Assembly: GCA_049513715.1 (NCBI GenBank)
Contig: JBEKVV010000004.1
Coordinates: forward strand, 96,001 to 160,000
DNA length: 64,000 nt
From: Candidatus Bathyarchaeia archaeon
Lineage (GTDB): Archaea; Thermoproteota; Bathyarchaeia; 40CM-2-53-6
Direction: 5' to 3'
The position numbers and the translations under genes were made by a program. Position 1 is the stretch's first letter; every line of letters starts with the position of its first letter. Below are positions 44,663 through 58,479 of the stretch, one piece after another. The notes beneath the pieces were generated by a model that worked only from the letters and a program-made list of their open reading frames with translations, was not told where the DNA came from and ran no database searches.

Positions 44663-44837
44663 CCCGCGGTAGCTCAGCCTGGTAGAGCTTCCGAGTCGCT
44701 CTAACTAGGAGTGACGGAGACGCTGTAGGTGTGCGCCCAAGGCGCGGCCATGTCAGCCTACTAGGCTAACAACCGAAACCGGACTGTCGCTGGTTCAAAG
44801 CAGGTGTTACCCTGTGAAAATCCGGCCCGCGGGACCA
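44663..44837 (+). tRNA. tRNA-Tyr(GTA) with three BHB introns (30/31, 37/38, 59/60)
   Basis: Removing 44694-44721, 44729-44777 and 44800-44820 gives a 77-nt cloverleaf. Confidence 0.92.
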
Positions 44838-45668
44838 TTATTTTGATGGTCGTGGGATCGGGGCTCCATTCTCCTTCAAAAGCAGAAGCCGTTCTTGAAG
44901 AGTTGTATGTGGTGGACAGGTACCAAGGGCTTTCCATACTAGGAATTTCGTATTCTTCGACAGATTGGCGAATCCCACTCTCATCATCCAGTAATGTAGC
45001 TGCTTACGACCCTTAATCCATATCAAGTGAAGTGGTACTCGACGCATCTGCTTGCTTTGGTATACACTACTATAGAAACGAAAACCCAGGTTCTTGAGCA
45101 AGCGAGTGGTGCCACTTGCGAGCGAGGGACTGCATGTTGAGAAGTTCAAAATGGGATCAGAGTATTCGGATCTTGCGTTCTTGCCAAATGAGAGTGAGCC
45201 GTCCGTGTCAAAGAGACCTCTCAAACAAGCTGAGTAGAACGATTTGTCATTGGAGTCCAGGAGAACGTCGGGTATACGGGCTCTGTACTTGGGCCCAACT
45301 GGCAATCCAAGAATCTTGGATTTGAAATAGAATACGGCCATGGAGCCGTACATCAGGTTCAGTTCTGACTTTTCAGGGCGCTCGTAAGTGCTACCTCGAA
45401 GATTGTAGAGCCGGGAAACAAGCGTCGAAACATGCGAAAGGAGGTAATCGCGGTCTTCTCTGTTATGCCCTGTATAGATCCATCGATACTCTGTTCCTCC
45501 ACGTTTCGGCCTGCAGAACTTCAGTTGGCCGTCACCCAAATGAATCCCGATTTCCTCCGCAAGCTCTATCGACATTTCTTTGGGGATCGTAACCTGTCTT
45601 CGGTCATCATTCCAACTGCGTGGCAGTGTCGAAGGAATCGGAGGCCTCATCCTTGCATATCGCTCCAA
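44838..45668 (-). CDS. free-standing two-motif LAGLIDADG homing endonuclease
   Basis: ELAEEIGIHLGDG and CLRGLFDTDGS; no intein splice ends. Confidence 0.88.
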   Translation of the reverse strand: MERYARMRPPIPSTLPRSWNDDRRQVTIPKEMSIELAEEIGIHLGDGQLKFCRPKRGGTEYRWIYTGHNREDRDYLLSHVSTLVSRLYNLRGSTYERPEKSELNLMYGSMAVFYFKSKILGLPVGPKYRARIPDVLLDSNDKSFYSACLRGLFDTDGSLSFGKNARSEYSDPILNFSTCSPSLASGTTRLLKNLGFRFYSSVYQSKQMRRVPLHLIWIKGRKQLHYWMMRVGFANLSKNTKFLVWKALGTCPPHTTLQERLLLLKENGAPIPRPSK

Positions 45669-45762
45669 GAGTGTGAGTAATTGCGACTACTAATGCGAGA
45701 GAGCTAGGTGAAACGAATCTGGAATCGTACTAGTCCTACCGTGCAGTATTCAATGAAGGACA

Positions 45763-45910
45763 GCTGTAGTCCTGTACCTTGATGGTATGGGGAGTTCAGC
45801 TTACTAGGCGTACAACGTCTGAAACCGGAGTGTCGCTGGAGAACCGTTCAATGGTTCGGCGAATTCAAAATGGAGTGCATAACTCTATGAAACTCCGGCC
45901 CGCGGGACCA
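45763..45910 (+). pseudogene. 5'-truncated tRNA-Tyr(GTA) copy with introns at 37/38, 53/54, 59/60
   Basis: GCTGTAG|45770-45823|ACCGGAGTGTCGCTGG|45840-45863|TTCAAA|45870-45893|TCCGGCCCGCGGGACCA; acceptor 5' strand absent. Confidence 0.85.
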
Positions 45911-48893: not shown

Positions 48894-49835
48894 ATGATGC
48901 CAGTTAATGAGAAGGATGTCGTAGCGGCAATCGAGAAAGTGAGCCCTGCGGTCGTGTCCATCGCAACCCTTAGGGTCATTCAGGAGAACCTGTTTGATGC
49001 TGTTCCAGTTCGCGGCTTGGGCTCGGGTATTATTTTCGATTCTAACGGTGGGATACTTACGAACCACCATATCGTTGAGGACGCTGAGAGGGTTCAGGTG
49101 GTTACTGCGAACGGGAAGAAGTTCCAGGGAGAGGTGTTGGGCTCTGATGCGATGTCGGATGTGGCTGTGGTCAGGGTGGATGGCGAGGGATTGCCTGCCG
49201 TTAGGCTTGGGGATTCCGATAAGTTGGTTGTGGGTCAAATTGCGATCGCAATCGGTAACCCGTACGGGTTTCTTCTACCCGGGCCGACGGCGACGGTTGG
49301 TGTAATCAGTGCTCTGCAACGGCATCTCCACGTTGAGAACCACATGTACGAGGACCTGATTCAAACCGACGCTTCAATCAACCCAGGAAACAGCGGCGGC
49401 CCCTTGGTGGACAGCTCAGGCCAAGTCATTGGCGTCAACACGGCTAACATACCGTTCGCGCAGGGCATAGGGTTCGCGATACCAATCAATAATGCGCGGA
49501 AGATTGCGAAGGAAATAATCCAGCACGGACGCGTCCCGCGACCGTACCTAGGTATCTCAGGCCTGACTCTGAACCGAGACATAGCCGAATCCTACAATAT
49601 TCCACACGAGAAGGGAGTGCTGGTGGTTAGGGTGGGGAGGGGTAGCCCAGCCCATAGGGGTGGCATGTCAGCCGGAGATGTGATTCTTGAGGTCGACAAG
49701 AAACCTCTGAAGGCTTGGGAGGATTTGCAGCATGTGGTTCAGGAGAAGAAGGTGGGAGAGAGTTTGGAATTGTTCGTGGGCCGCGACCAAGAGCAAGGCA
49801 AGATGAACATAGTCCTGGAGGAAGCGGCCAGGTAA
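48894..49835 (+). CDS. htrA: HtrA/DegP-family serine protease with PDZ domain
   Basis: TNHH, DVAV, QTDASINPGNSGGP. Confidence 0.95.
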   Translation: MMPVNEKDVVAAIEKVSPAVVSIATLRVIQENLFDAVPVRGLGSGIIFDSNGGILTNHHIVEDAERVQVVTANGKKFQGEVLGSDAMSDVAVVRVDGEGLPAVRLGDSDKLVVGQIAIAIGNPYGFLLPGPTATVGVISALQRHLHVENHMYEDLIQTDASINPGNSGGPLVDSSGQVIGVNTANIPFAQGIGFAIPINNARKIAKEIIQHGRVPRPYLGISGLTLNRDIAESYNIPHEKGVLVVRVGRGSPAHRGGMSAGDVILEVDKKPLKAWEDLQHVVQEKKVGESLELFVGRDQEQGKMNIVLEEAAR

Positions 49836-50124
49836 ATCTTCGTCCTAGCCACAGATTGGCGCCATTTTTCCTTTCTATTATTGTTGAGTAGGGGGGAGGG
49901 GGCAGTAGGGCAGTATGGGCCCCATCGTCGTGTTTCGGGATAAGATTTAAGCCAGTCATACTGGACGACAGACCTGAATCCAAACTAGGTTGCTGATTCC
50001 TCCGCCCTCCGGGGACTGGATCCAGTACTCCAACCTCTGAGCACCAACCAAGCCACGATTCGGGCTTTCTGGTGTTTTGCTGGCGGCTTGGCCGTAGCCT
50101 GTGATTCTTGTCGCGTGATCTTGG

Positions 50125-50460
50125 TTGGTGTTGTTCTTGAGGAAGAGTGTTCTTCGTATCTGGATTCGACAGCGTGAACTAGATCTGTTGGATGAATTGG
50201 CGAAACGCCTCGGGTTGCCCTCTAGAAGCCGACTTACAAACATCGCTCTGCAGTTCTTTTTCGAGCTAAACCATGAAGATCTCCCTGCTGCGGGGCAGAG
50301 GCGCAGGGTCAAGATATTGTTGGATCCATCAATCAAAGAAGAACTGGACGAGCTCTCCACATGCTTGCTCATTCGAAAAGCTTACCTGACGAAGATCGCG
50401 CTCAACGAATTCACACGTCGTTACCGGGCGACTTCTGTTCAACGAGATCATGAACCCTAG
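50125..50460 (+). CDS. tandem ribbon-helix-helix DNA-binding protein
   Basis: Two repeats: LLDELAKRLGLPSRSRL and ELDELSTCLLIRKAYL. Confidence 0.65.
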   Translation: MVLFLRKSVLRIWIRQRELDLLDELAKRLGLPSRSRLTNIALQFFFELNHEDLPAAGQRRRVKILLDPSIKEELDELSTCLLIRKAYLTKIALNEFTRRYRATSVQRDHEP

Positions 50461-50540
50461 CCGTACGTTAGGCCGCCTAACACAGTTTCGATTCCAGCCA
50501 CCTTTCGTCAAGGGAATGGATCAGGTCGGGGTTATCTGAG

Positions 50541-50921
50541 ATGGCAAATGAGTCGCATAAAAGCGACGATCCAGAAGTTGACATTCAGCAGGTAATCTGC
50601 AAATTAGTGCTAGCTCTGAAGCGATTGGAGGGCTACAATCCGGTTCTAGATCTGCCGCTCATTGAGGAGGTAGCCCGCAGCGCGGCTTTCATCAGACTCG
50701 GCGAAAGCTTCCTGATCAATCCGAAATGCTCTCCGGGAACGTACGCCAGTATTTCTGATGGGATAGCGAAGCATGCGTCCAGAATGCGCCAAGCCATGAA
50801 GGAGCTGGCAGCTACGAGAGCGGAGCGAATGCGCTACCAAACTGCAACGGCACAAGCCGCGCAGGTCAAAGAGATCGTGGATAAGATCATTCACCAGGAG
50901 AATGAGCATGACAGCGCGTGA
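50541..50921 (+). CDS. putative terminase small subunit
   Basis: Helical 126-aa protein overlapping the terL start. Confidence 0.45.
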   Translation: MANESHKSDDPEVDIQQVICKLVLALKRLEGYNPVLDLPLIEEVARSAAFIRLGESFLINPKCSPGTYASISDGIAKHASRMRQAMKELAATRAERMRYQTATAQAAQVKEIVDKIIHQENEHDSA

Positions 50922-52245
50922 AAGATTCCGAGAAGAGGTAAGTAAGGCTAAGTGGAATGCGGCCTACTTTGCCGAAATCTTCCTCTCTCTGAGACCGTTT
51001 CCATACCAAGTCGACTTTCTCAGGGACGATGGAAAAGAGATTGCCGCGGCATGCGGTCGCCAGGTTGGAAAGACCACCCTAGCCGCAATCAAGGGTTTGC
51101 ATTTTGCCTTCTTCCATCCAGACGTGACTGTGCTGATCATCAGCTCCACGCTCCGCCAAAGCATGATCCTGTTCGCAAAGATCCGCTCAATGACAGAGTC
51201 GAACCCAATTCTCCGAATGAAAGTGAAGAACTCGAACCGGACAACAATTGAATTCGATCACGGCAGCCGAATCGTGGCGTTGCCCTGCGGACCGACCGGT
51301 TACAGCCTACGAGGCCACACCGCGGACATGATCATCCTAGATGAAGCGAACTTCGTGCCGGAAGAGATTGTGGACGGCGTCGTAAGGCCCATGCTCATCG
51401 CCAAACCCAACTCAAGACTCATCATGGTCTCCACACCTTGGACTCGAAACCATCCATTCTACCGAGCCATCTCTGAGAAGGGTCGAGGATTTCATGTCTA
51501 CAGATGGCCGACAAGCCTCAGCCCACTAGTCTCCGCGGAGAAGCTTCAAGCCGACCGCAACGCCCTCGACGCTCTCACATTCAGAAGAGAGTACGAAGCC
51601 CAGTTCGTCGAAGAAAACGATTCCTATTTCCCAACCCACCTCATCTCGCAGTGCGTAGACGGAAGCTATGAACTCCTGGAGGATCAGGACGTTCTCCAAA
51701 CCGAACACAAAGGCGTCTTTCACCTGGGCGTGGATTTTGGGAAGCGGGTTGACCACAGTGTCCTAGCTGTTCTTGAGGAATCCGCAGGCCGACTTCAACG
51801 CTTAGTCTATCTAAAACAGTTCCCGCTGCAAACAAATTACGCAACGGTAATCGGCTGGATTCGCCGCCTCAACGAGGGTTTCGGATTCGAGAGTGTAACC
51901 CTAGACCAGACAGGAGTCGGAGAAGCACCAGTCGAAGACGTGAAAACCTTCCTTCCAAACGCTGAAGGCGTCATTCTGACGAACAAGATGAAACTGGATA
52001 TTCTATCGAACCTGCAACTTCTCATGCAACATGAGAGGTTGAAGATACCGCTCGAAAAGACCATAATCACCCAGATCAACGAGCAGCAATACGAGATCAA
52101 TAAGACAGGGGAACTAATCTTCTCACACCCAACCCGATCACACGACGACAAACTCTGGGCTTTGGTTTTTTCAGCTTGGGGAGCCAGAAAACCACCTCGC
52201 CCAAGCTTCTTGCCAATAACCCGCTCCTTTGGACTAAGACCCTAA
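50902..52245 (+). CDS. terL: terminase large subunit (Caudoviricetes-type)
   Basis: YQ, GRQVGKT, ILDEA, STP, FRREYEAQF, GVDFG, HDD. Confidence 0.92.
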   Translation: MSMTARERFREEVSKAKWNAAYFAEIFLSLRPFPYQVDFLRDDGKEIAAACGRQVGKTTLAAIKGLHFAFFHPDVTVLIISSTLRQSMILFAKIRSMTESNPILRMKVKNSNRTTIEFDHGSRIVALPCGPTGYSLRGHTADMIILDEANFVPEEIVDGVVRPMLIAKPNSRLIMVSTPWTRNHPFYRAISEKGRGFHVYRWPTSLSPLVSAEKLQADRNALDALTFRREYEAQFVEENDSYFPTHLISQCVDGSYELLEDQDVLQTEHKGVFHLGVDFGKRVDHSVLAVLEESAGRLQRLVYLKQFPLQTNYATVIGWIRRLNEGFGFESVTLDQTGVGEAPVEDVKTFLPNAEGVILTNKMKLDILSNLQLLMQHERLKIPLEKTIITQINEQQYEINKTGELIFSHPTRSHDDKLWALVFSAWGARKPPRPSFLPITRSFGLRP

Positions 52246-52379
52246 CTGATCGAAATGATTGCCGGAACATGTAACGACTCAGCCGGTGACCACTTTGGGT
52301 CTATGGGCAATCTTGTCAGGATCGCTGATTCTCGGGTCTTGGAAAAGTTTAGGTAGTCTCACCCCTTGCTCGTGTGGTA

Positions 52380-52574
52380 GGGCCCGTAGCTCAGTCAGAT
52401 CCACGCAAAATGGATCCTAGATAGGTAGAGCATCGGAAACACCGTGCAATTCCACGGGTGTTGGTGATGCTTTTACCCTGGGTTTCTGGAACCTTAGGGA
52501 AGCCACCCGAAAAGACACCGCTTAACCGCGGTCTTGGGGAAGGGTCCCGGGTTCAAATCCCGGCGGGCCCGCCA
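52380..52574 (+). tRNA. tRNA-Lys(TTT) with four BHB introns (17/17a, 30/31, 37/38, 43/44)
   Basis: Removing 52397-52422, 52437-52468, 52476-52504 and 52511-52541 gives a 77-nt cloverleaf. Confidence 0.92.
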
Positions 52575-52769
52575 CCTTCACTGAGTGGCTGTACCATTTT
52601 CTTGATGCCAGCAGGACAAAGTCCTCCCGCGAGTAGCCACCATCAGTCTTACGTGAGCATATGCCAGGATTTTTTCTGGTTTGGCGTTTGGAGCGAGCTG
52701 TCGTCAAAGACACCGCTCCCTTGACCACACTAGAACAATTCCTCAGCCCGACTTGTATTCTGCAGCGCA

Positions 52770-52790
52770 GGGCCCGTAGTTTAGTCAAGG
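52770..52790 (+). repeat. tRNA 5'-end fragment GGGCCCGTAGTTTAGTCAAGG
   Basis: Resembles the start of tRNA-Lys at 52380. Confidence 0.55.
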
Positions 52791-52915
52791 TGAGTCCGAC
52801 TGTTTTCGTACACTTTTAGTGGGTGAGTGGCGTGACTGAGCCTAGGCAACGCGGAAGGCTATCTCAGCGCAAAGTCTCTTTAGTAAATCCAAAAGCTAGT
52901 CGTTTCGGGTCTATT

Positions 52916-53262
52916 ATGAGCCCGCAATTCATCCGCTCCAAAAGAGCTTCCAATCTTAGCAAATCCGTGGAGCTTGAGGCGTTCCTTGGTTCCTGCAGAA
53001 ACGATTGGCTAAAAGAGAAAGCCGAAGAGGCATTCACAGAAATAAAAGCTCATTATGAAATTGGCGACAAGGTCCAGAAGGACAGATGGCCGCGCTATTA
53101 CGTCTTGACATGGGGATCAACAATCTGTATGTTCATAAGCTTGGGCGCGACTGGCGCTTAACCTACTCGCTCGTAGCAGATGAAGTAGGAATCATGGCCT
53201 TCTGCCTTGAAATCCTGACACACAAGCAATATAACAAAAGGTTTGGTTACGGGAACACCTAG
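52916..53262 (+). pseudogene. frameshifted RelE/HigB-like toxin
   Basis: After a frameshift near 53102 continues GINNLYVHKLGRDWRLTYSL...LEILTHKQYNKRFGY. Confidence 0.7.
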
Positions 53263-53519
53263 CGCACGCGGATGCTTTTCGCCAATGCCCGCTTTAACGT
53301 GGCGTTGTCAGCGAAGACCCAGACGATTTCACGATCATTCAAGATTATTTTGTTGCTTGCTAGCAAGTACTCTATGACACGGTTGAAAGTTTGGTATTGT
53401 ACCTTGCGCGGGAGGCTTTGCCACAGGGCCTTCTTGGTCGGATAGTTTTTCGCTTTGTGTATGGCTTCTTCCACCATCAGTATGGTTCCTAGTGTGGGTT
53501 CGTGGGCGTTTTTCACCAT
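53259..53519 (-). CDS. small winged-helix protein, putative antitoxin
   Basis: HEPTLGTILMVEE...YQTF..VIEYL.ASNKI; stop overlaps the toxin stop (CTAG). Confidence 0.7.
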   Translation of the reverse strand: MVKNAHEPTLGTILMVEEAIHKAKNYPTKKALWQSLPRKVQYQTFNRVIEYLLASNKIILNDREIVWVFADNATLKRALAKSIRVR

Positions 53520-53578
53520 CAGACATTTCCTCTCCCTTAGAGTTACTACTACAGTAGACTACTATGGTAATGTGCTAT

Positions 53579-53613
53579 TTATACATAATTGTATATTATA
53601 CAAGTATGTATAA
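53579..53613. promoter_or_regulatory. 35-bp AT-rich near-perfect palindrome
   Basis: TTATACATA-A-TTGTATA-T-TATACAA-G-TATGTATAA upstream of the wHTH gene. Confidence 0.55.
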
Positions 53614-53700
53614 TGCTTTAATTGTCGGAAAACGCTATGCCCGCCACATCCATCAAGGGTTGTCATGAAGATTTTGCTCAAGATCCCTGATCTCATGATG

Positions 53701-53731
53701 TTGGTGGGTTCAAATCCCACCGGCCCAACCA
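53701..53731 (+). repeat. tRNA 3'-end (T-arm to CCA) fragment
   Basis: TTGGTGGGTTCAAATCCCACCGGCCCAACCA; first 21 nt identical to 54374-54394. Confidence 0.75.
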
Positions 53732-53779
53732 TCTCGTCTGTGTAATGACCGTTCTTTCACGAGAGTATAATTGAGTCCA

Positions 53780-54043
53780 TCATTTGTAGGCCCTTCCTCT
53801 GAACTCGACAGCGAGAACGGCAATCGTTTTGGATTCCCAGTCGACCTCATACTCGATGCGGATTTCTCCTATTCGTATTCTGTAGGTGTCATGCATCCCA
53901 GCCAGTTTCCTGACATCGTATTCAGGAACTGGCGCTGGATTCTGACTCAAAGCCTCTAAAACCAGCAGGACTCCACGCGCGTAGTGGCTAGGTATACGCC
54001 TAAGCGACTTCCTAGCACGGTTTGAAATAATGATTTCGAACAG
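53780..54043 (-). CDS. relE: RelE/ParE toxin (apparent CTG start; missing from ORF track)
   Basis: FEIIISNRARKSL...DVRKLAG..DTYRIRIGEIRIEYEV...RGRAYK. Confidence 0.85.
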   Translation of the reverse strand: MFEIIISNRARKSLRRIPSHYARGVLLVLEALSQNPAPVPEYDVRKLAGMHDTYRIRIGEIRIEYEVDWESKTIAVLAVEFRGRAYK

Positions 54044-54048
54044 GAGAG

Positions 54049-54267
54049 CTACGCACCGAGTTCCTTTCGGAGCTGGCCTAAGGTGACGTAGCGGCCCTTC
54101 TCAACCTCTAGCCGACCCTGTCGGATCAGTTTTCTTTCTCTGGCAGTCACTCGCTCTTCCGGAAGTAGGGCCGCCCTTAAGCGAAGAAGCTCTATCTTCA
54201 CGTCGTCAAGCTTCGTGATTACTTTACGCAATTCAGTCTTGGTTACTGCCATTAGATTATCCCGCAC
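54049..54267 (-). CDS. antitoxin of the RelE module
   Basis: E..LI..G..EVEKGRYVTL..L C-terminal motif; directly upstream of relE. Confidence 0.75.
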   Translation of the reverse strand: MRDNLMAVTKTELRKVITKLDDVKIELLRLRAALLPEERVTARERKLIRQGRLEVEKGRYVTLGQLRKELGA

Positions 54268-54373
54268 ATCTGCAGTCTAACCAACTAGTAAAAGAATCTG
54301 GCGTCTGGCAGAGCCTTATCTCCTTCCTCCTACGGGGTGGGTATTCTACTTAGAAACGTGATTAGTCCCACAA

Positions 54374-54404
54374 TTGGTGGGTTCAAATCCCACCTGCCCC
54401 AGCA
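54374..54404 (+). repeat. degenerate tRNA 3'-end fragment
   Basis: TTGGTGGGTTCAAATCCCACCTGCCCCAGCA. Confidence 0.7.
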
Positions 54405-54445
54405 CTTTCCTGTTTACCCGTTGCCGTCGAGCATTGCACCTACTC

Positions 54446-54589
54446 CATTGGAGGTCGGCATGTGATGTGCTGGTCGGTGATGCTTTTACCTTTTCGGGAA
54501 ACGTAAACCCAGGGAAGCCACCCGAAAAGAAACCGCTTAACCGCGGTCTTGGGGAAGGGTCCCGGGTTCAAACCCCGGCGGGCCCGCCA
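54446..54589 (+). pseudogene. 5'-truncated tRNA-Lys(TTT) copy (positions 25-76) with three introns
   Basis: CATTGG|54452-54481|GCTTTTA|54489-54519|ACCCGA|54526-54556|GGGTCCCGGGTTCAAACCCCGGCGGGCCCGCCA. Confidence 0.85.
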
Positions 54590-54693
54590 ACTCCCTGTTC
54601 CTCATGAATGTCCGCGTGAATCCGAACAGCCTTCTTGCTGGGGCCCTGCAGATGATGGTCGAGAAGAATGGAAGCTTTTGCATCTAAGCCAGA

Positions 54694-54879
54694 TTAGCTC
54701 AGGCGTTTCCCGCATACTCCGCAATGATGTGCATATGCTGGGTTCACGTTCCCGCATTTGGGGCAGGTTCCACCCACCATCATTGGTGTCCTGGGGAGTG
54801 GTGTCCCGCAGCTGAAGCAATAGCTATTGAACGGGGGGTTCCAGGTGCAACATATCGTGCAATAGGAAGAAGCGACCAT
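54694..54879 (-). CDS. double zinc-ribbon small protein
   Basis: Four CxxC pairs. Confidence 0.7.
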   Translation of the reverse strand: MVASSYCTICCTWNPPFNSYCFSCGTPLPRTPMMVGGTCPKCGNVNPAYAHHCGVCGKRLS

Positions 54880-54924
54880 GATACTCAGTCCAACCTGTAA
54901 CCCTCAAAAGGGCATCCGAATAAA

Positions 54925-55803
54925 ATGTTTGCCTTAGCCCATGGTCATGCATCTGCAATTCATATGGAAGGAGGACGCAAAAATCGGCTTGGTCAACGGG
55001 AACTGACCTACTGGATTTGGAGTTTGTTTCCTTTCTTGGAGAACATCGACCCCGTCTATCTTCTCCAGCCCATAATCACAATCGCGTTCAGCATTGGCCT
55101 GGTTGTTTTCTGGCACTACTGGCGCAGTTTCACGAGAGGCGCACTGATCTATTCCCTCCTTGCCTACGGGGGAGGAATACTGATCAAAATAGTCCTCCAA
55201 TCCTTCACAGCCAGTGCGTTTGTGGCCCGGTTCGGGGAGAATCCGTACATTTTGGGGGCGTACTTTGGGCTTCAAACTGTCGTTTTTGAAGTAGGTGGGG
55301 CGTTCTTGGTAGCGACTTGGGCGGTTTCCAAAGGCAAGCTCGCGGCCAAAGACGATGAAGGCTACGGACTGGGACTAGGGCTATGGGAGAACGCAGTAGT
55401 GGTCGGTGGGTTTGGTTTGCTGAACCTTTTGATAATCTACTTAACATTCGCGTCCGGAGGATCTACAGCTGAAGCCCTACGCGCAGTAGTTGTCAACTCC
55501 AATCCTGAACTTTTCGCGCCACCAGTCCAAGCTTTCACGACGGTGGGATTTGGCTTGTTGGAGCGAGTGTCGTCGCTCATATTCCATTTCGCGTGGGGGC
55601 TTCTCTGCGTGCTTTCAGCAGTCACTCGTAAACGACTATACTTCGTAGTGGCGTTGCCGATGGGGCTCGTGGACTTTCTCGTTCCATTTTCCAAAATCCT
55701 AACGATTCCAGTCTTCGAAACAAGCGTCTTCATTCTAGCTGTCCTAGCTCTCCAGTTGTCCCTGTATGTGACGAGGGGAGATCGACAACCACCTCAAACA
55801 TAG
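54925..55803 (+). CDS. YhfC-family intramembrane metalloprotease-like protein (start uncertain)
   Basis: YGLGLGLWEN, ER.SS..FH; multiple TM. Confidence 0.75.
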   Translation: MFALAHGHASAIHMEGGRKNRLGQRELTYWIWSLFPFLENIDPVYLLQPIITIAFSIGLVVFWHYWRSFTRGALIYSLLAYGGGILIKIVLQSFTASAFVARFGENPYILGAYFGLQTVVFEVGGAFLVATWAVSKGKLAAKDDEGYGLGLGLWENAVVVGGFGLLNLLIIYLTFASGGSTAEALRAVVVNSNPELFAPPVQAFTTVGFGLLERVSSLIFHFAWGLLCVLSAVTRKRLYFVVALPMGLVDFLVPFSKILTIPVFETSVFILAVLALQLSLYVTRGDRQPPQT

Positions 55804-55821
55804 GTGAGCTTGCTGTCCCTC

Positions 55822-57255
55822 TCACTGATTTTCACCGTGACCCATATGCTCCATTTCGTGGTGGTATTGCTCAGGCGTCATTAGGCTTTGGAATGCGCGG
55901 TCAACAACCTCGCTCAAGGCAGGATGAATATGCATCGCATCGAGCAAAGGCCGCGCGCTCTGCTCAGGCGTATACATCAAGTTGATGATTTCCTGAATCA
56001 AAACCGACGCTGAAGGTCCAATGATGTGCGCACCAAGAATCCTGAGGCCGTTCTTTTCGAGAATAACCTTGACGAAATAGTCTTTCACTGCCATGGCTTC
56101 CCCTTTAGCTGTGTCTTGGTAACGCTGAAATCCGATCAGAGTTCCTTCAGACCCATATTTCTCGATGGCTTCATTCTCTCTGAGTCCAACAGCCGCGACC
56201 TCGGGGTATGTGAAGACCGCGTGCGGAACGGCATGGTAATCTACAGGGATTCTGCGACTCAAAACCGCGTTATAAAACACTATCCGGGATTCATAATTAC
56301 CTACATGTTTGAACAAGTACTTACCATGAGCATCGCCGAAAGCCCACACGTTGGGTAGTGAAGTTTCCAAGAATTCGTCGACCAACACCCACCCCTTTTC
56401 GTCAGTCTTGATTCCTCCCTTGTCAGGGTGGAGTATGTCGGTTGTCGGTCCACGTCCTGAGGCAATCATGATTTCTTTCGCAGTGATTGTTGTCTTCTCT
56501 CCTGTTTTGTGGTCAACGGCAAGTAGGGATTTTCCGCCGGGTTCGTTCTGTGCGGTCATAACCTCATGGTTTGTGAGAATCGTCATGTGTTTGCTGAGTT
56601 CCCGCTTGGCTAGGGCTGAAACCTCAGGCTCTTCTTGGGGTAGGAATTGTGGGTTTCGGCCGATGATTGTGACCTTTGAACCCATCGCGGACAGAAAATG
56701 GCCATACTCGGCGGCGATGTACCCACCGCCTACGATGGCTATGCTTTCTGGCAAAGTGGTTTCGTAGAGTATAGTATCGCTTGTCTTGTAACCAACTTCA
56801 TTCAAGCCTTTGATGGGAGGAATGATGGGCTTTGAGCCGATGGACAGAAGAATCATCTTGGATCTGATAGTCTCTTCTCGCACCTTCAGTGTATACCGGT
56901 CAACGAATTCAGCGACGGCGTGGTAATAGTCGATGTTCGGCGATTCGCTCAATCCTTGCCTGATTGAGTTGATGTCGCCATCGATTAGAGTTCTCATGCG
57001 CTTCATGACCTTGCCAAAATCAACGTTCCGTATTGCCACGTCTATGCCAAAGGTTCCGGCACGTTCGATCTCACGAACAAGTTCGGCTGGGTACAGTAGT
57101 ATTTTTGATGGGATGCAACCTCGTGTTAGGCAGATTCCTCCAGGTTCATCTTTGTCGATTACTGCTGCCTTGAGGTCGGGGCTCCTTTGGATCATCCCAT
57201 CAAGAACGTTCATCGCAGAGCCGGTGCCGATTGCAATCACATCATACTCTTTCAT
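55822..57255 (-). CDS. dihydrolipoamide dehydrogenase-family flavoprotein
   Basis: GGICLTRGCIPSK, GGGYIA.E, HIHPALSE. Confidence 0.88.
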   Translation of the reverse strand: MKEYDVIAIGTGSAMNVLDGMIQRSPDLKAAVIDKDEPGGICLTRGCIPSKILLYPAELVREIERAGTFGIDVAIRNVDFGKVMKRMRTLIDGDINSIRQGLSESPNIDYYHAVAEFVDRYTLKVREETIRSKMILLSIGSKPIIPPIKGLNEVGYKTSDTILYETTLPESIAIVGGGYIAAEYGHFLSAMGSKVTIIGRNPQFLPQEEPEVSALAKRELSKHMTILTNHEVMTAQNEPGGKSLLAVDHKTGEKTTITAKEIMIASGRGPTTDILHPDKGGIKTDEKGWVLVDEFLETSLPNVWAFGDAHGKYLFKHVGNYESRIVFYNAVLSRRIPVDYHAVPHAVFTYPEVAAVGLRENEAIEKYGSEGTLIGFQRYQDTAKGEAMAVKDYFVKVILEKNGLRILGAHIIGPSASVLIQEIINLMYTPEQSARPLLDAMHIHPALSEVVDRAFQSLMTPEQYHHEMEHMGHGENQ

Positions 57256-57456
57256 GGCCTCAGTGAAGAATCAGCGAACATAACAGACTTTTCTTGAACA
57301 CACTGAAGACCAGCAGCACGCTCTATCAGCAGCTTGGAAAAAGGACCGAAGTTCGTCCCCGTCGGTTCGAGAACGAGGCATACGCCTATCTTCGCGAAGG
57401 AACTTGATGATGGAGTGATAGTTGACGCTTGGTTAAGTGGACTATTGGACTATGCG

Positions 57457-57804
57457 CTATTCTTTGCGGGTCGCATTTGTTGCGAGTTGGAAGTCTGTGG
57501 CCCATTTGATGAGTTGGCTCATGTGGTTTTCTGCGTTGAATTTGTAGGCTTGAGCGTTGCCCAATTTTCTTGTGGTCGACACCCACCGGAGTTCTTGTAG
57601 GTGCTTGAGGCAGTTCTTAGCGGTTTTGAATGTCAGCCCAGTGCCTTCTGCTATGATGGAGACCGTGAACTCCGCGCTGCCTAGGAGAAGACTTTGGTCC
57701 AGGATCCGCGCCATCGGAATCCCCCTACCCATTACAGTCACGAAGGGGCCCGCGTCAAAGTATTCGTCCTTCTTACTCGCTCTCACAGCTTCCACCATCA
57801 TCAT
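57457..57804 (-). CDS. winged-helix DNA-binding protein
   Basis: FTVS.IAEGTGLTFKTA...L..L...RKLGNA..YK. Confidence 0.7.
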   Translation of the reverse strand: MMMVEAVRASKKDEYFDAGPFVTVMGRGIPMARILDQSLLLGSAEFTVSIIAEGTGLTFKTAKNCLKHLQELRWVSTTRKLGNAQAYKFNAENHMSQLIKWATDFQLATNATRKE

Positions 57805-57856
57805 GATGATGACAATAACTTAATAAATGCTTCCAATAACATGGTAGCGATTTCCA

Positions 57857-58216
57857 ATGTCTACCGAGGAGCGAACGAAGCTCGCTAAGGGCTTCGTAAT
57901 GAACAAGATGTATTCCCTCGGATTAATCGGCGGGAGACACACTTCCGTAGATAACCTTCCGAAAAGCTGCCCGCATGAACTGGAACAAAACGTGAAAGCG
58001 GCAATCGACGAACTCCGCAAAGAAAAGCTTCTGGTAATCAAGCCAACAAGCTACGGGCAACAAGCCTCCGCGACGATGGCCGATCTAGGTCGGAATTACG
58101 CGAATGCCTATAGGGAACACGTCAACCTGCCCGAGACCGATTTCAATCCCACAAAGAAAGTTGAAGCGTCCCCGCTGACCAAGGAGGAATTGAGGAAGCT
58201 AAGATTCAAGAAGTGA
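57857..58216 (+). CDS. hypothetical basic protein
   Basis: IGGRHTS.DNLPK...AI.EL.KE.LL..KPT.YG. Confidence 0.6.
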   Translation: MSTEERTKLAKGFVMNKMYSLGLIGGRHTSVDNLPKSCPHELEQNVKAAIDELRKEKLLVIKPTSYGQQASATMADLGRNYANAYREHVNLPETDFNPTKKVEASPLTKEELRKLRFKK

Positions 58217-58479
58217 GTTCCGAATCGGACTTGGGTGGGTACCGTGCCTCCACTTATGTTGAACTAGTCATAAGTTTCGTCTCAGTGAGATAATTTTGAG
58301 GCCTCTCAACACAGAGACATGCACACACTTGAGATGGGGGGCCCTTCCTTCTTTACAGTTATCGCTTCAATTGATCAGAGGATTCCGACACACACCTCAA
58401 AGGTGAGTGAGATCGCAGCTCAGCCTTCCTCGTTACTTGAGAGCGCGTGTTCCCCTCACTTTTCATGAAGCGAAAAATG

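Follow-up and report, generated by a model that had tools for sequence, protein, structure and literature searches.

The DNA analysed here, a 64,000-nt stretch referred to below as the window, comes from a peat Bathyarchaeia archaeon (genome G000) and carries two copies of tRNA-Lys(UUU) on the same strand, about 2 kb apart. The working gene occupies 52380-52574 on the forward strand, as do all features below unless the reverse strand is named. It contains four introns, encodes its own CCA and shows the expected splicing-motif register. Its exons lie at 52380-52396, 52423-52436, 52469-52475, 52505-52510 and 52542-52574, and are separated by a D-loop intron (52397-52422), absent from an earlier note on this DNA, and by introns at 30/31 (intron 1, 52437-52468, 32 nt), 37/38 (intron 2, 52476-52504, 29 nt) and 43/44 (intron 3, 52511-52541, 31 nt). 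The second copy starts 1871 nt beyond the CCA of the working gene. It is a 144-nt fragment (54446-54589) covering positions 25-76, from C25 to an encoded CCA, with exons at 54446-54451, 54482-54488, 54520-54525 and 54557-54589 and three introns at 54452-54481 (30 nt), 54489-54519 (31 nt) and 54526-54556 (31 nt). The earlier note had described a repeat of positions 25-76 about 1.9 kb downstream with introns at the same three sites, a single-base difference in the 43/44 intron and the exon changes C28T and T60C; all of this is confirmed, the intron difference being C at 52516 against A at 54531 and the exon changes lying at 54449 and 54573. Eighteen distinct tRNA-Lys genes of the genus have the same three introns, and every one of them carries C28 and the TTCAAAT in which the two exon changes of the copy fall. 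As the copy lacks positions 1-24 and has no complementary partner in the genome, its sequence indicates that it cannot be a tRNA and makes none. In annotation it should be flagged as a pseudogene fragment, neither a tRNA nor the giant-intron tRNA that ARAGORN reports with introns allowed. The multi-intron genes were dissected by hand and with regular expressions; tRNA-Asp is the one tRNA of the window detected by Rfam at gathering score or by ARAGORN when introns are disallowed.

Starting at the CCA and reading backwards, working gene and copy agree at 77 of 79 positions (52496-52574 against 54511-54589, with mismatches at 52516 and 52558), and then similarity collapses. This attL-like core takes in the final 9 nt of intron 2 together with exon 38-43, intron 3 and exon 44-76. 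Between copy and working gene, identity is 0.97 for intron 3, 0.71 for intron 2 and 0.59 for intron 1. The flanks diverge from the first base past CCA, and the direct repeat ends at the tRNA 3' end. The repeat is no chance match; an att-type, same-strand direct repeat of the 3' part of the tRNA is present at both ends of the intervening island. Each of the copy's three introns can be fitted to a BHB register, taken as two 3-nt bulges with a 4-bp helix between them and splice sites that each follow the second base of a bulge; the central helices of introns 1, 2 and 3 have 4/4, 4/4 and 3/4 pairs. The 18 orthologues, the working gene and the copy follow the same pattern (4/4 for introns 1 and 2, three or four of four for intron 3), from which cleavage is predicted only. 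The closing helix of the copy's intron 1 has 10 consecutive pairs, a length reached by 17 of 20000 shuffles of its interior. The intron differs in sequence from its counterpart in the working gene, closes with a better helix and keeps the 4-bp central helix despite C28T, a combination from which we infer that it evolved inside a working gene. Its outer exon helix is lost (1/4 pairs) because the left flank of the copy is not tRNA. That the 30/31 and 37/38 introns differ inside and still keep BHB pairing, as had been claimed before, is therefore correct, and the pairing supports a view of introns 1 and 2 of the copy as structurally intact alleles, predicted not to be decayed versions of the introns in the working gene.

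Two of the copy's introns look foreign by sequence. The exon together with intron 2 is 78-84% identical to tRNA-Lys genes of other species and 76% to the gene of its own genome. Intron 3 is the version of the G000 lineage itself, at 0.97 to the working gene with the next best match at 0.83. No donor of the leader and most of intron 1 was found among 22 other genomes of the genus. Searches with an exact gapped pattern of the copy's C28T version against public genome contigs and with an intron 2 pattern against public metagenome contigs each gave 0 matches, in both cases with the source genome or near-identical records possibly omitted. A looser pattern recovered 18 loci, all Bathyarchaeia-type genes like those of the genus (three of the records carry bacterial bin labels), and none of the 18 comes close to the copy's intron 1.

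The island between the two copies (52575-54445, 1871 nt) has a GC content of 0.483 against 0.516 for the window, and holds decayed toxin-antitoxin genes interspersed with fragments of tRNA genes. From left to right it begins with the upstream region and the initial ~20 nt of a gene resembling tRNA-Val(GAC) (52688-52790), a stretch 71.7% identical over 106 nt to the gene at C2:437773 with its upstream DNA; as its similarity is to this Val-like gene and its upstream region, it was ruled out as a tRNA-Lys 5' half. A frameshifted putative toxin gene follows (52917-53262), in which frame 2 ...KDRWPRYYV continues into frame 1 LDMGINNLYVHKLGRDWRLTYSL...; it has no family match in Pfam, PHROGs or NCBIfam, and sequence resemblance suggests that it is RelE-like. 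Convergent with it on the reverse strand is an 86-aa ORF of no known family (53259-53519, no match in Pfam, PHROGs or NCBIfam). Fragment A (53697-53732) is an orphan tRNA 3' end with a T-arm GTGGGTTCAAATCCCAC, acceptor and CCA. On the reverse strand, a ParE-like toxin ORF (53780-54045) matches Pfam ParE_toxin with E 1.3e-4 and 22.9 bits against a cut-off of 23; about 88 codons are open, with no ATG, GTG or TTG start before codon 33. In the antitoxin position upstream of it lies a 72-aa reverse-strand ORF (54049-54267), also with no match in Pfam, PHROGs or NCBIfam. Fragment B (54355-54405) belongs to a dispersed att-like family in which an arm ATTAGTCCCAC.. is followed by the T-arm and acceptor of another tRNA; other G000 copies lie at C1:892314, C3:181344 and C5:206519, and arrays occur in G014 and G018. 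The remaining 40 nt (54406-54445) form the leader of the partial copy. The opening bases of this leader are similar to the sequence on the right of a chimeric copy in G018 described below, and the leader has no match in 22 other genus genomes and no complementary partner genome-wide. No recombinase gene or remnant was found in the island or in 49800-58400, and tblastn with the integrase-like ORFs of relatives gave nothing; PF00589 has no match in the window, the matches of the G000 genome lying elsewhere. Likewise, no endonuclease gene lies between the complete tRNA-Lys and the copy. A nuclease-like ORF family is instead found on the 5' side, where the last ~25 codons or so of a cassette ORF (52247-52330) abut the promoter and 5' part of the working gene, the ORF end and promoter region together spanning 52247-52379 as identified by translation and homology. 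The frame-1 translation LIEMIAGTCNDSAGDHFGSMGNLV... aligns to the C-terminus of L025:527-1603, the ORF is intact in G004 (358 aa), and an upstream GGAAAAGTTTAGGTAG motif is common to G000, G004, G015 and G034. A 358-aa ORF downstream of tRNA-Lys in G008 was considered as a cassette ORF and is unrelated; GGGCCCC at 49927, considered as a native 5' fragment by HtrA, belongs to a ~75-nt repeat family with 6 other loci aligned and is therefore no remnant of a tRNA.

Relatives share the gene order HtrA, tRNA-Lys, variable DNA, oxidoreductase, and the gap from tRNA-Lys to the oxidoreductase is ~630 nt in G013, 2.5 kb in G004, 3.25 kb in G000, 3.3 kb in G014 and 7 kb in G018. None of them shares the flanks of G000 or provides an exact empty site, and in 17 relatives the stretch of 70-700 nt that follows tRNA-Lys has no significant match to either flank. 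In G017 a tyrosine-recombinase gene, read in two frames, stands directly after the CCA of tRNA-Lys on the same strand; three libraries each match it weakly (Pfam 21.4 bits, NCBIfam XerA E 7e-6, PHROG integrase E 7.9e-4). G001 holds a recombinase remnant with a broken frame, in homologous DNA that begins immediately behind the CCA and is 71% identical over 391 nt. Integrase-type elements at the tRNA-Lys 3' end therefore do occur in the genus, as shown by the G017 recombinase and the homologous DNA in G001. In G017, no repeat of its tRNA-Lys of at least 11 nt that could serve as attR was found within 12 kb downstream. An apparent likeness between the flank of the working gene and the element arm of G017, G001 and G012 amounts to 9/11 bases around GTACC.TT.T and is too weak to use.

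A second partial tRNA-Lys copy is present in 3/23 genomes of the genus (G000, G034 and G018), starting at position 25, 23 and 24, respectively, with unrelated left flanks. The G034 copy follows an island of 0.9 kb that holds a DUF2283 pair, and has three different introns, of which intron 2 is 0.97 identical to the gene of L056 and 0.90 to those of G012 and G016; in an RpoB tree L056, G012 and G016 group outside the clade of G034. The gene of G034 itself is mixed, its intron 1 resembling clade D alleles (0.92 to G008). Intron alleles therefore do not simply track species, and naming one copy native is unsafe. The G018 copy lies ~970 kb from the complete gene, is Lys-type up to the T-loop and then continues as the other att family, a chimera that is, to judge from its composition, a trace of recombination inside GGGTTCAAATCCC. 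Identities of its introns 1, 2 and 3 to those of the complete gene are 0.62, 0.90 and 0.94; in G000 and G018 alike, similarity of copy to host gene is graded and rises toward the 3' end. The nuclease cassette on the 5' side accompanies the copy at the locus in G000 and G034 and occurs without it in G004; among cassette-free genus genomes with downstream DNA read, none has a partial copy at the locus. In G004, G034 and three further genomes of the family, the cassette ORF is preceded by a 5' fragment that has the old promoter and stops at position 15-19, and is followed by a complete gene. The full layout of G034 is 5' fragment, ORF, full gene, small island and 3' fragment from position 23. G037 has only the 5' fragment and the 5' start of the gene, with no T-arm in the stretch examined. 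The G004 gene combines a cassette promoter with introns like those of its clade sisters G013, G014 and G018.

What could have placed an intron-bearing tRNA fragment behind a working tRNA gene? The observations support the copy being the distal direct repeat of a small, mobile-looking DNA block behind tRNA-Lys. We propose, with a confidence slightly above even, that it is the distal, attR-like end of a decayed island without an integrase, with a tRNA-derived arm that stems from a different tRNA-Lys allele. The attachment arm of a mobile element would have consisted of tRNA-Lys sequence from about position 24 to CCA with the three introns of a donor allele, and the element would have recombined with the host gene inside the common 3' part. 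The 5' part of the host gene and its own introns 1 and 2 would have stayed in the working gene, and the element arm with its different introns 1 and 2 would have ended at the far junction. The 79-nt block including intron 3 would represent the shared core, either matched to the host before integration or homogenised later by gene conversion; one or the other is required by an intron 3 that is the lineage's own version. Subsequently the element may have lost its recombinase, and what it still holds is toxin-antitoxin genes, all of them broken or doubtful, beside att-like pieces of further tRNA genes. The mosaic identity, the structurally intact but foreign-looking introns, an intron 2 nearer to other species than to the resident gene, the variable locus, the recombinases of G017 and G001, the recurrence in 3/23 genomes and the graded similarity argue for this mechanism, as do the origin of the G034 copy's intron 2 in the allele group of another clade and the improbability of an artefact. 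Against it, the searches described above found no recombinase, empty site, excision joint or donor, and starts within 3 nt of each other next to unrelated left flanks fit a breakage hot spot equally well. The co-occurrence of copy and cassette in G000 and G034 hints at a link that the attachment-arm mechanism does not predict. The earlier suggestion that an integrative element carried an intron-containing attP from a related host holds in part: direct repeat, intact alleles and recurrence speak for it, and neither recombinase nor donor was found. Its corollary, that integration swaps the introns of the host, needs correcting for G000. The identity block includes no more than the final 9 nt of intron 2; by crossing over within it, the two copies could at most have traded intron 3 and the 3' exon, not introns 1 and 2.

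Other origins of the tandem arrangement have to be weighed against an attachment arm. It could be an artefact, either of joining the tRNA-Lys alleles of two strains one behind the other or of placing a 2-kb circle wrongly in the chromosome, given a bin rated 8.79% contaminated and contigs that in all four metagenome runs break inside a 44-nt stretch common to both copies, so that the graph alone also permits an empty site plus a 2014-nt circle. Coverage renders this barely credible. In 4/4 runs a single contig covers 52545/52546-54561 at flank depth, and the island stays within about 5% of both flanks over depths from 13 to 1000 (511.9 against 524/501, 984.8 against 1021/985, 13 against 13.5/13.4 and 76.2 against 80/78), a 1:1 ratio that an episome or a second strain would not hold. 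Moreover, 0.98-0.99 of the words of 52300-54700 are found in 24 runs, and the 5' part of the copy exists in a distinct version, with 5 differences in 61 nt, in a minor strain; a minor-strain contig of run X1 starts to match precisely at 54446. Strain mis-assembly, which the earlier note had named as a possible refutation, is accordingly unlikely. Among the contigs of the four runs there was no joint skipping from the working gene to the copy and no excision joint; joints from 53724/53731/53734 to 54361-54373, considered as deletion variants, have sides of 27-33 nt and are read as other T-arm-repeat loci. Alternatively, the 3' part of tRNA-Lys may have been duplicated locally in tandem, the two copies then diverging and being separated by unrelated insertions, with no tRNA-targeting element; this would account for same-strand copies 2 kb apart that share the lineage's own intron 3. 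We consider it quite improbable, since a duplicate decaying uniformly is ruled against by the mosaic of 2 changes in 79 nt followed by identities of 0.71 and 0.59. In the copy's intron 1 the substitutions are paired and leave a 10-pair helix intact, for which a dead duplicate offers no reason, and copies with the same limits and other intron sets exist in two other species. Expression of the copy, as a 3' half trans-spliced to a separate 5' half or as a processed small RNA, appears extremely improbable, even though a motif predicted to be cleavable is kept in all three introns, all exon changes preserve pairing, and ARAGORN with introns reports a single 'tRNA' made up of a fragment at 52770, an intron of 1734 nt and the copy. 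An intact gene with the same anticodon lies 1.9 kb upstream (52380-52574), and the 5' fragment at 52771 derives from a Val-like gene. Its trailer pairs with the leader of the copy at -27.3 kcal/mol against a shuffle mean of -27.7, with 52% of shuffles as good, and the best complement to the leader genome-wide is 13 nt long (E 1.1) and away from any tRNA 5' half. C28T and T60C also depart from the state of all 18 distinct orthologues. The DNA thus lends no support to a trans-spliced half, the second refutation that had been envisaged, and no complementary leader/trailer pair is predicted.

The remaining alternative, and the strongest, reverses the polarity of the two copies, the copy being the native 3' remnant and the working gene the import. 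A cassette with a complete or nearly complete tRNA-Lys and the nuclease-like ORF would have entered the D-arm region of the original gene and pushed its positions 25-76 downstream; the toxin-antitoxin cargo would have come later, and the 79-nt identity would stem from later gene conversion. The promoter and 5' part of the working gene are indeed cassette-borne, with the last codons of the ORF abutting them, and the ORF's place in G004, G034 and three others, behind the 5' fragment ending at 15-19 and ahead of a complete gene, is as expected, G034 displaying the entire predicted layout. The insertion point at 15-19, however, differs from the starts of the partial copies at 23-25, even if three left limits so close together beside unrelated flanks resemble a target site. 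A copy at the locus is confined to cassette-bearing genomes (G000 and G034), and recombination of the full gene with the native tail would yield the cassette promoter and clade-type introns seen in G004, which has no copy. But in four of the six ORF genomes (G004, G041, G050 and G069) the locus sequence examined has one T-arm and no second 3' copy, which indicates that the cassette normally restores the 5' end only. In addition, an intron 2 from the allele group of another clade is unexpected in a native tail in G034, and the G018 copy is remote from the tRNA-Lys locus and joined to an att site whose family is integrase-type; a member of that family also precedes the G000 copy at 40 nt. On balance we judge the reversed polarity unlikely, and retain the attachment arm as the preferred explanation.

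How does such an arm compare with known systems? The accessible text of PMC8371274 describes archaeal att sites as favouring the tRNA 3' end 'with various 5' limits' that can extend to the D-loop. As in the attL/attR pairs of elements with SSV1-type and pNOB8-type tyrosine recombinases, G000 has a complete tRNA gene at one end and a same-strand 3' copy at the other, the repeat stops where the tRNA does on its 3' side, and the locus varies between relatives (PMC8371274, same text). Unlike those elements, the island is only 1.9 kb long and without recombinase, and its repeat spans three introns and is near-identical over the 3' 79 nt only, the rest being a diverged allele. An intron-bearing attP was proposed in 2012 by Sugahara et al. 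for tRNA-Thr(GGU) of Caldiarchaeum subterraneum, the idea in the accessible part of that paper being that the host gene receives an intron from the attP that contains it (PMC3293823). There too, a small insertion lies between a multi-intron gene and a tRNA fragment that differ in intron content, the fragment being a 5' one, with one extra intron and a 1.8-kb insert that holds a putative recombinase (PMC3293823, same part). G000 instead has a 3' fragment, three introns in both copies and no recombinase; with three introns in both, alleles would have been exchanged and no intron gained. Split tRNA genes, for which the accessible text of PMC4033280 names Nanoarchaeum and Caldivirga, share with the copy a free-standing tRNA-gene piece with splicing-type motifs. 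The copy differs in having neither a leader/trailer pair nor a 5' half, beside an intact gene with the same anticodon. The tRNA-Tyr locus of the same genome (about 44663-45910) resembles that of tRNA-Lys in its complete multi-intron gene, short insert and intron-bearing 3' copy, which there starts near the anticodon arm; at the Lys locus the island has no nuclease or recombinase, and the nuclease-like ORF is on the 5' side as a remnant only. Cis-mobilisable elements of bacteria are att-flanked remnants that lack a recombinase of their own and carry small cargo such as toxin-antitoxin genes. The G000 island likewise has att-type repeats, no recombinase and toxin-antitoxin cargo; it differs in its archaeal host and intron-bearing repeat. 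The locus is thus an insertion scar of a familiar kind, unusual for its two foreign-looking introns.

Gain and exchange of introns in archaeal tRNA genes are unsettled. A 2026 preprint on Asgard archaea, in its accessible part, treats the route of tRNA intron arrival as still open and finds no general route (10.64898/2026.10.13.758758), and the model of attP as an intron vector rests, in the accessible text of PMC3293823, on the single Caldiarchaeum locus. A broader possibility, which we put forward tentatively and regard as doubtful, is that the arm from position 24 to 76 of tRNA-Lys serves as a travelling intron store, moved between species of the genus by an element family. Recombination from the T-loop would repeatedly convert arm and host gene with varying tract lengths, which would explain the graded similarity in G000 and G018 and the mixed-clade intron sets of complete genes such as that of G034. 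If true, this would be a working route for the replacement and spread of archaeal tRNA introns. Together with its two parallels in the genus, the G000 locus provides concrete material for the question: two allelic intron sets side by side, a sharp breakpoint, similarity rising to the T-loop and a chimera with its crossover in the T-loop. These loci allow it to be tested whether mobile DNA carries intron sequence between genomes.

The genome that holds the window comprises 2.79 Mb in 11 contigs at 51% GC, and the window lies on contig C4. ARAGORN, and Rfam at its gathering score, call tRNA-Asp as the sole tRNA in the window; the remaining tRNA genes, split by several introns, were dissected by hand. 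The complete, working tRNA-Lys(UUU) gene (52380-52574) contains four introns, one in the D-loop (52397-52422) and three at sites 30/31, 37/38 and 43/44 (introns 1, 2 and 3). Positions 25-76 recur in a partial copy at 54446-54589, which is interrupted by introns at these three sites as well. The earlier note had described this copy, and its account proved right in all particulars when the exon changes (C28T and T60C), intron sites, intron differences and pairing were re-derived; the D-loop intron, of the bulge-helix-bulge type, is an addition to it. Identity between the introns of the copy and those of the working gene is 0.59, 0.71 and 0.97 from intron 1 to intron 3, the last differing by one base. 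Counting left from CCA, the copies agree at 77 of 79 positions before similarity collapses inside intron 2, and to the right of CCA the flanks are unlike from the first base. A bulge-helix-bulge register was drawn for each intron and scored by script in 18 distinct orthologues, the resident gene and the copy. The central helix is 4/4 for introns 1 and 2 in all 20 sequences, and the interior of the copy's intron 1 forms ten consecutive closing pairs, a run reached by 17 of 20000 shuffles. The only helix missing in the copy is the outer exon helix of intron 1, which is lost because the left flank is not tRNA. Introns 1 and 2 of the copy are intact alleles, not decayed copies. A 2014 review gives three as the maximum number of introns in an archaeal tRNA gene (PMC4033280), and a non-exhaustive literature search for four-intron archaeal tRNA genes returned just a paper on a red alga.

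Could the repeat be an artefact of assembly or a functional tRNA half, the two objections raised in the earlier note? Public wetland and peat metagenomes do not bear out mis-assembly. Twenty-four runs, all flagged as a possible source of this DNA, contain 0.98-0.99 of the sampled words from 52300-54700, and in all four runs examined by contig a single contig spans 52545/52546-54561 at flank depth (511.9 against flanks of 524 and 501 in X1; 984.8 against 1021 and 985 in X2; 13 against 13.5 and 13.4 in X13; 76.2 against 80 and 78 in X12). Because the contigs break inside the stretch common to the working gene and the copy, the graph alone is also compatible with a 2-kb circle beside an empty site, but the 1:1 ratio of island to flank depth over an 80-fold depth range favours the integrated order. 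One contig of a minor strain in X1 (depth 23) matches 54446-54506 with five differences, and its preceding 1962 nt resemble nothing in 51800-55300; since this match begins at 54446, the break at that position is real. As for a trans-spliced 3' half with its partner encoded elsewhere, ARAGORN with introns allowed does join a 5'-like fragment at 52771 to the copy. However, that fragment and its 100-nt upstream region belong to a Val(GAC)-like gene, pairing between the fragment's trailer and the leader of the copy is no stronger than in shuffles, and the best complement to this leader genome-wide is 13 nt (E 1.1). The DNA thus offers no partner, which argues against a tRNA half. The same program reports four other 'tRNAs' in the genome with introns of 399-2698 nt, which may be further fragment pairs around insertions.

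The island between gene and copy (52575-54445) measures 1871 nt, with a GC content of 0.483 versus 0.516 in the window. First comes, at 52688-52790, a stranded piece of a tRNA-Val(GAC)-like gene (homologue at C2:437773) made up of its promoter region and ~20 nt of its 5' end; a 5'-restoring tRNA-Val cassette would carry a piece of this sort. There follow a frameshift-broken RelE-like gene, named by sequence resemblance, a convergent 86-aa ORF, the orphan tRNA 3' fragment A (53697-53732), a ParE-like ORF with a 72-aa partner (22.9 bits in Pfam against a cut-off of 23; without the usual start codon) and, 40 nt before the copy, fragment B (54355-54405). Fragment B bears an arm, ATTAGTCCCAC.., then the T-arm and acceptor of another tRNA, and represents a dispersed att-like family, to which fragment A also belongs. 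The family core, GTGGGTTCAAATCCCACCGGCCCCA, is the T-arm and acceptor of a non-Lys tRNA and is often accompanied by the arm ATTAGTCCCACGAATC. Six to seven orphan copies are present in this genome, with sites outside the window at C1:892314, C3:166055, C3:181344, C3:427307 and C5:206519; two relatives carry arrays with a spacing of 1-12 kb (G014, C3 122-138 kb; G018, C2 465-486 kb). Behind the 3' end at C3:166055 stands a 470-aa ORF that matches integrases weakly, and 15 kb farther along there is an arm-bearing copy. At C1:892245-892344 and C5:206495-206590, near-identical over 150 nt, a tRNA-Phe(GAA) 3' fragment running from anticodon loop to acceptor without CCA stands 10 nt ahead of a family member, a stacking that resembles fragment B ahead of the Lys copy. 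By a rough whole-genome census of T-arm and acceptor sites, every one with a matching upstream 5' acceptor strand and a tRNA-like 3' end encodes CCA.

The three introns are shared by every tRNA-Lys(UUU) gene found in the genus (18 distinct sequences plus those of G001 and G034). The D-loop intron is found in 12 of the 18 genomes whose 5' part was read (the genome of the window, G014, G004, G013, G018, G008, G015, G017, G006, G010, G034 and G001) and is absent from G016, G007, G012, G005, G002 and G003. Of nine loci compared together with long flanks, eight keep the order HtrA - tRNA-Lys. The DNA behind tRNA-Lys is a variable spot: the distance to the downstream oxidoreductase gene is ~630 nt in G013, 2.5 kb in G004, 3.3 kb in G014 and 7 kb in G018, the intervening DNA is unrelated, and none of the relatives compared offers an exact empty site. 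A tyrosine-recombinase gene begins ~100 nt past the CCA in G017, on the same strand; it is split into two reading frames, its motifs HGFR and LMGHS..Y were recognised by eye, and its matches in three libraries all fall under the curated cut-offs. From the first base past CCA, G001 is 71% identical to this DNA over 391 nt, and the first ~35 nt of the arm are common to G012 and locus L057. No second tRNA-Lys repeat was found in the 12 kb downstream in G017. Recombinase-bearing elements thus use tRNA-Lys in the genus.

A second, partial tRNA-Lys copy occurs in 3 of 23 genus genomes. The G034 locus starts with a 5' fragment that retains the old promoter. A 371-aa ORF comes next, followed by a complete gene with four introns, 0.9 kb containing a DUF2283 gene and its partner of 101 aa, and finally the partial copy. 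This copy starts at position 23, and its introns are 0.58, 0.72 and 0.69 identical to those of the full gene; its intron 2 is 0.97 identical to the L056 gene and 0.90 to the G012 and G016 genes. A single-gene RpoB tree (23 rows, with the partial match of G009 omitted and both G002 copies retained) groups G034 with G001 and G007, apart from G012 and G016, and the copy looks foreign. The resident gene of G034, however, has an intron 1 similar to clade D alleles (0.92 to G008), which means that intron sets are mixed anyway. The G018 copy starts at position 24, ~970 kb from the resident gene and inside an array of att-like sites; it is of Lys type as far as the T-loop and of the fragment-B family beyond (CCCACCGGCCCTACGAC). 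This chimera records a crossover inside GGGTTCAAATCCC, a sequence common to both tRNAs. Its introns are 0.62, 0.90 and 0.94 identical to those of its own resident, and identity to the resident climbs toward the 3' end both here and in the copy of the window.

All that this genome retains of a nuclease-like ORF of ~360 aa, intact elsewhere, is a stretch of its last ~25 codons (52247-52330) ahead of the working gene. Six of 105 genomes of the order, spread over three genera, carry the ORF (L025:440-1661 in G004; L064:1411-2636 in G034; L069-L072), and in all six it is flanked by a tRNA-Lys 5' fragment ending at position 15-19 and by the 5' start of a further tRNA-Lys gene with the D-loop intron, whose 3' end is seen in the stretch compared for five and is absent from the G037 stretch. 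Where the sequence was read (G004 and G034), the old promoter lies on the 5' fragment and a new one in the ORF's last codons. The ORF marks out a separate 5'-side cassette targeting tRNA-Lys. Its structural model (pLDDT 72) finds Bax1, PspGI, Can2 and other restriction-endonuclease-fold nucleases as best Foldseek rows, all at E > 0.001; Pfam gives DUF790 (E 0.0036), and protein-atlas leads to homing-endonuclease repeat and DUF559 clusters are all under 0.9. The weak Bax1 and DUF790 matches suggest a restriction-endonuclease-like central domain. Between HtrA and tRNA-Lys, a lone terminase-large-subunit-like ORF (50902-52245; Pfam Terminase_6N, E 4e-17) abuts the remnant. The 9-kb contig C11 encodes a copy that is 35% identical, as well as homologues of two ORFs at 57457-58216 (a winged-helix ORF and one of 119 aa), and may represent the genome of a small virus or plasmid. 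Just past the HtrA stop, 49856-49955 belongs to a ~75-nt repeat family (TTTCTTTCTATTATTGTTAGGTG..GGGGCAGTAGGG) with six further loci aligned on C2, C3, C6, C7 and C8 and a seventh match.

How did the copy arise? We think it somewhat probable that the island is an att-bounded element that has lost its recombinase, with the complete gene at one end and a CCA-ending 3' repeat at the other. The left part of the copy would then represent the arm of the element, acquired at some time from a different tRNA-Lys gene, and the 79-nt block the core shared by arm and host gene. The small addiction-type cargo, the variable site and recombinase use in relatives speak for such an anatomy; distinctive here is the reach of the repeat, which extends with reduced identity across two further introns as far as position 25. 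An arm of this origin fits the G018 chimera, the nearby fragment B, the foreign-looking G034 copy and the graded similarity. Against it, no recombinase or remnant was found in the island or its surroundings, nor was a donor of the arm; the three partial copies share a limit, yet their left flanks are unrelated, and copies at the locus are found together with the 5' cassette. The principal alternative, which we regard as rather unlikely, reverses the polarity: the copy would be the native tail, and the working gene would have arrived with the cassette. Under either polarity the copy is a pseudogene fragment that mobile DNA has left behind. The earlier proposal that host introns are exchanged upon integration is valid, in this genome, for intron 3 at most.

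Repeats of tRNA tails are a textbook feature of integrative elements. Archaeal att sites prefer the 3' end and vary in their 5' limits, some extending to the D-loop, according to the review PMC8371274, which also notes integration into intron-containing tRNA genes; PMC6563490 counts 10 of 39 such cases in Thaumarchaeota. Sugahara et al. 2012 proposed that an attP may ferry an intron between cells, on the basis of a single locus that has a 5' fragment and an additional intron (PMC3293823), and PMC8371274 takes up this proposal. To this the present locus adds three introns within the repeat, a sharp breakpoint and two parallels in the genus, one of them a T-loop chimera.
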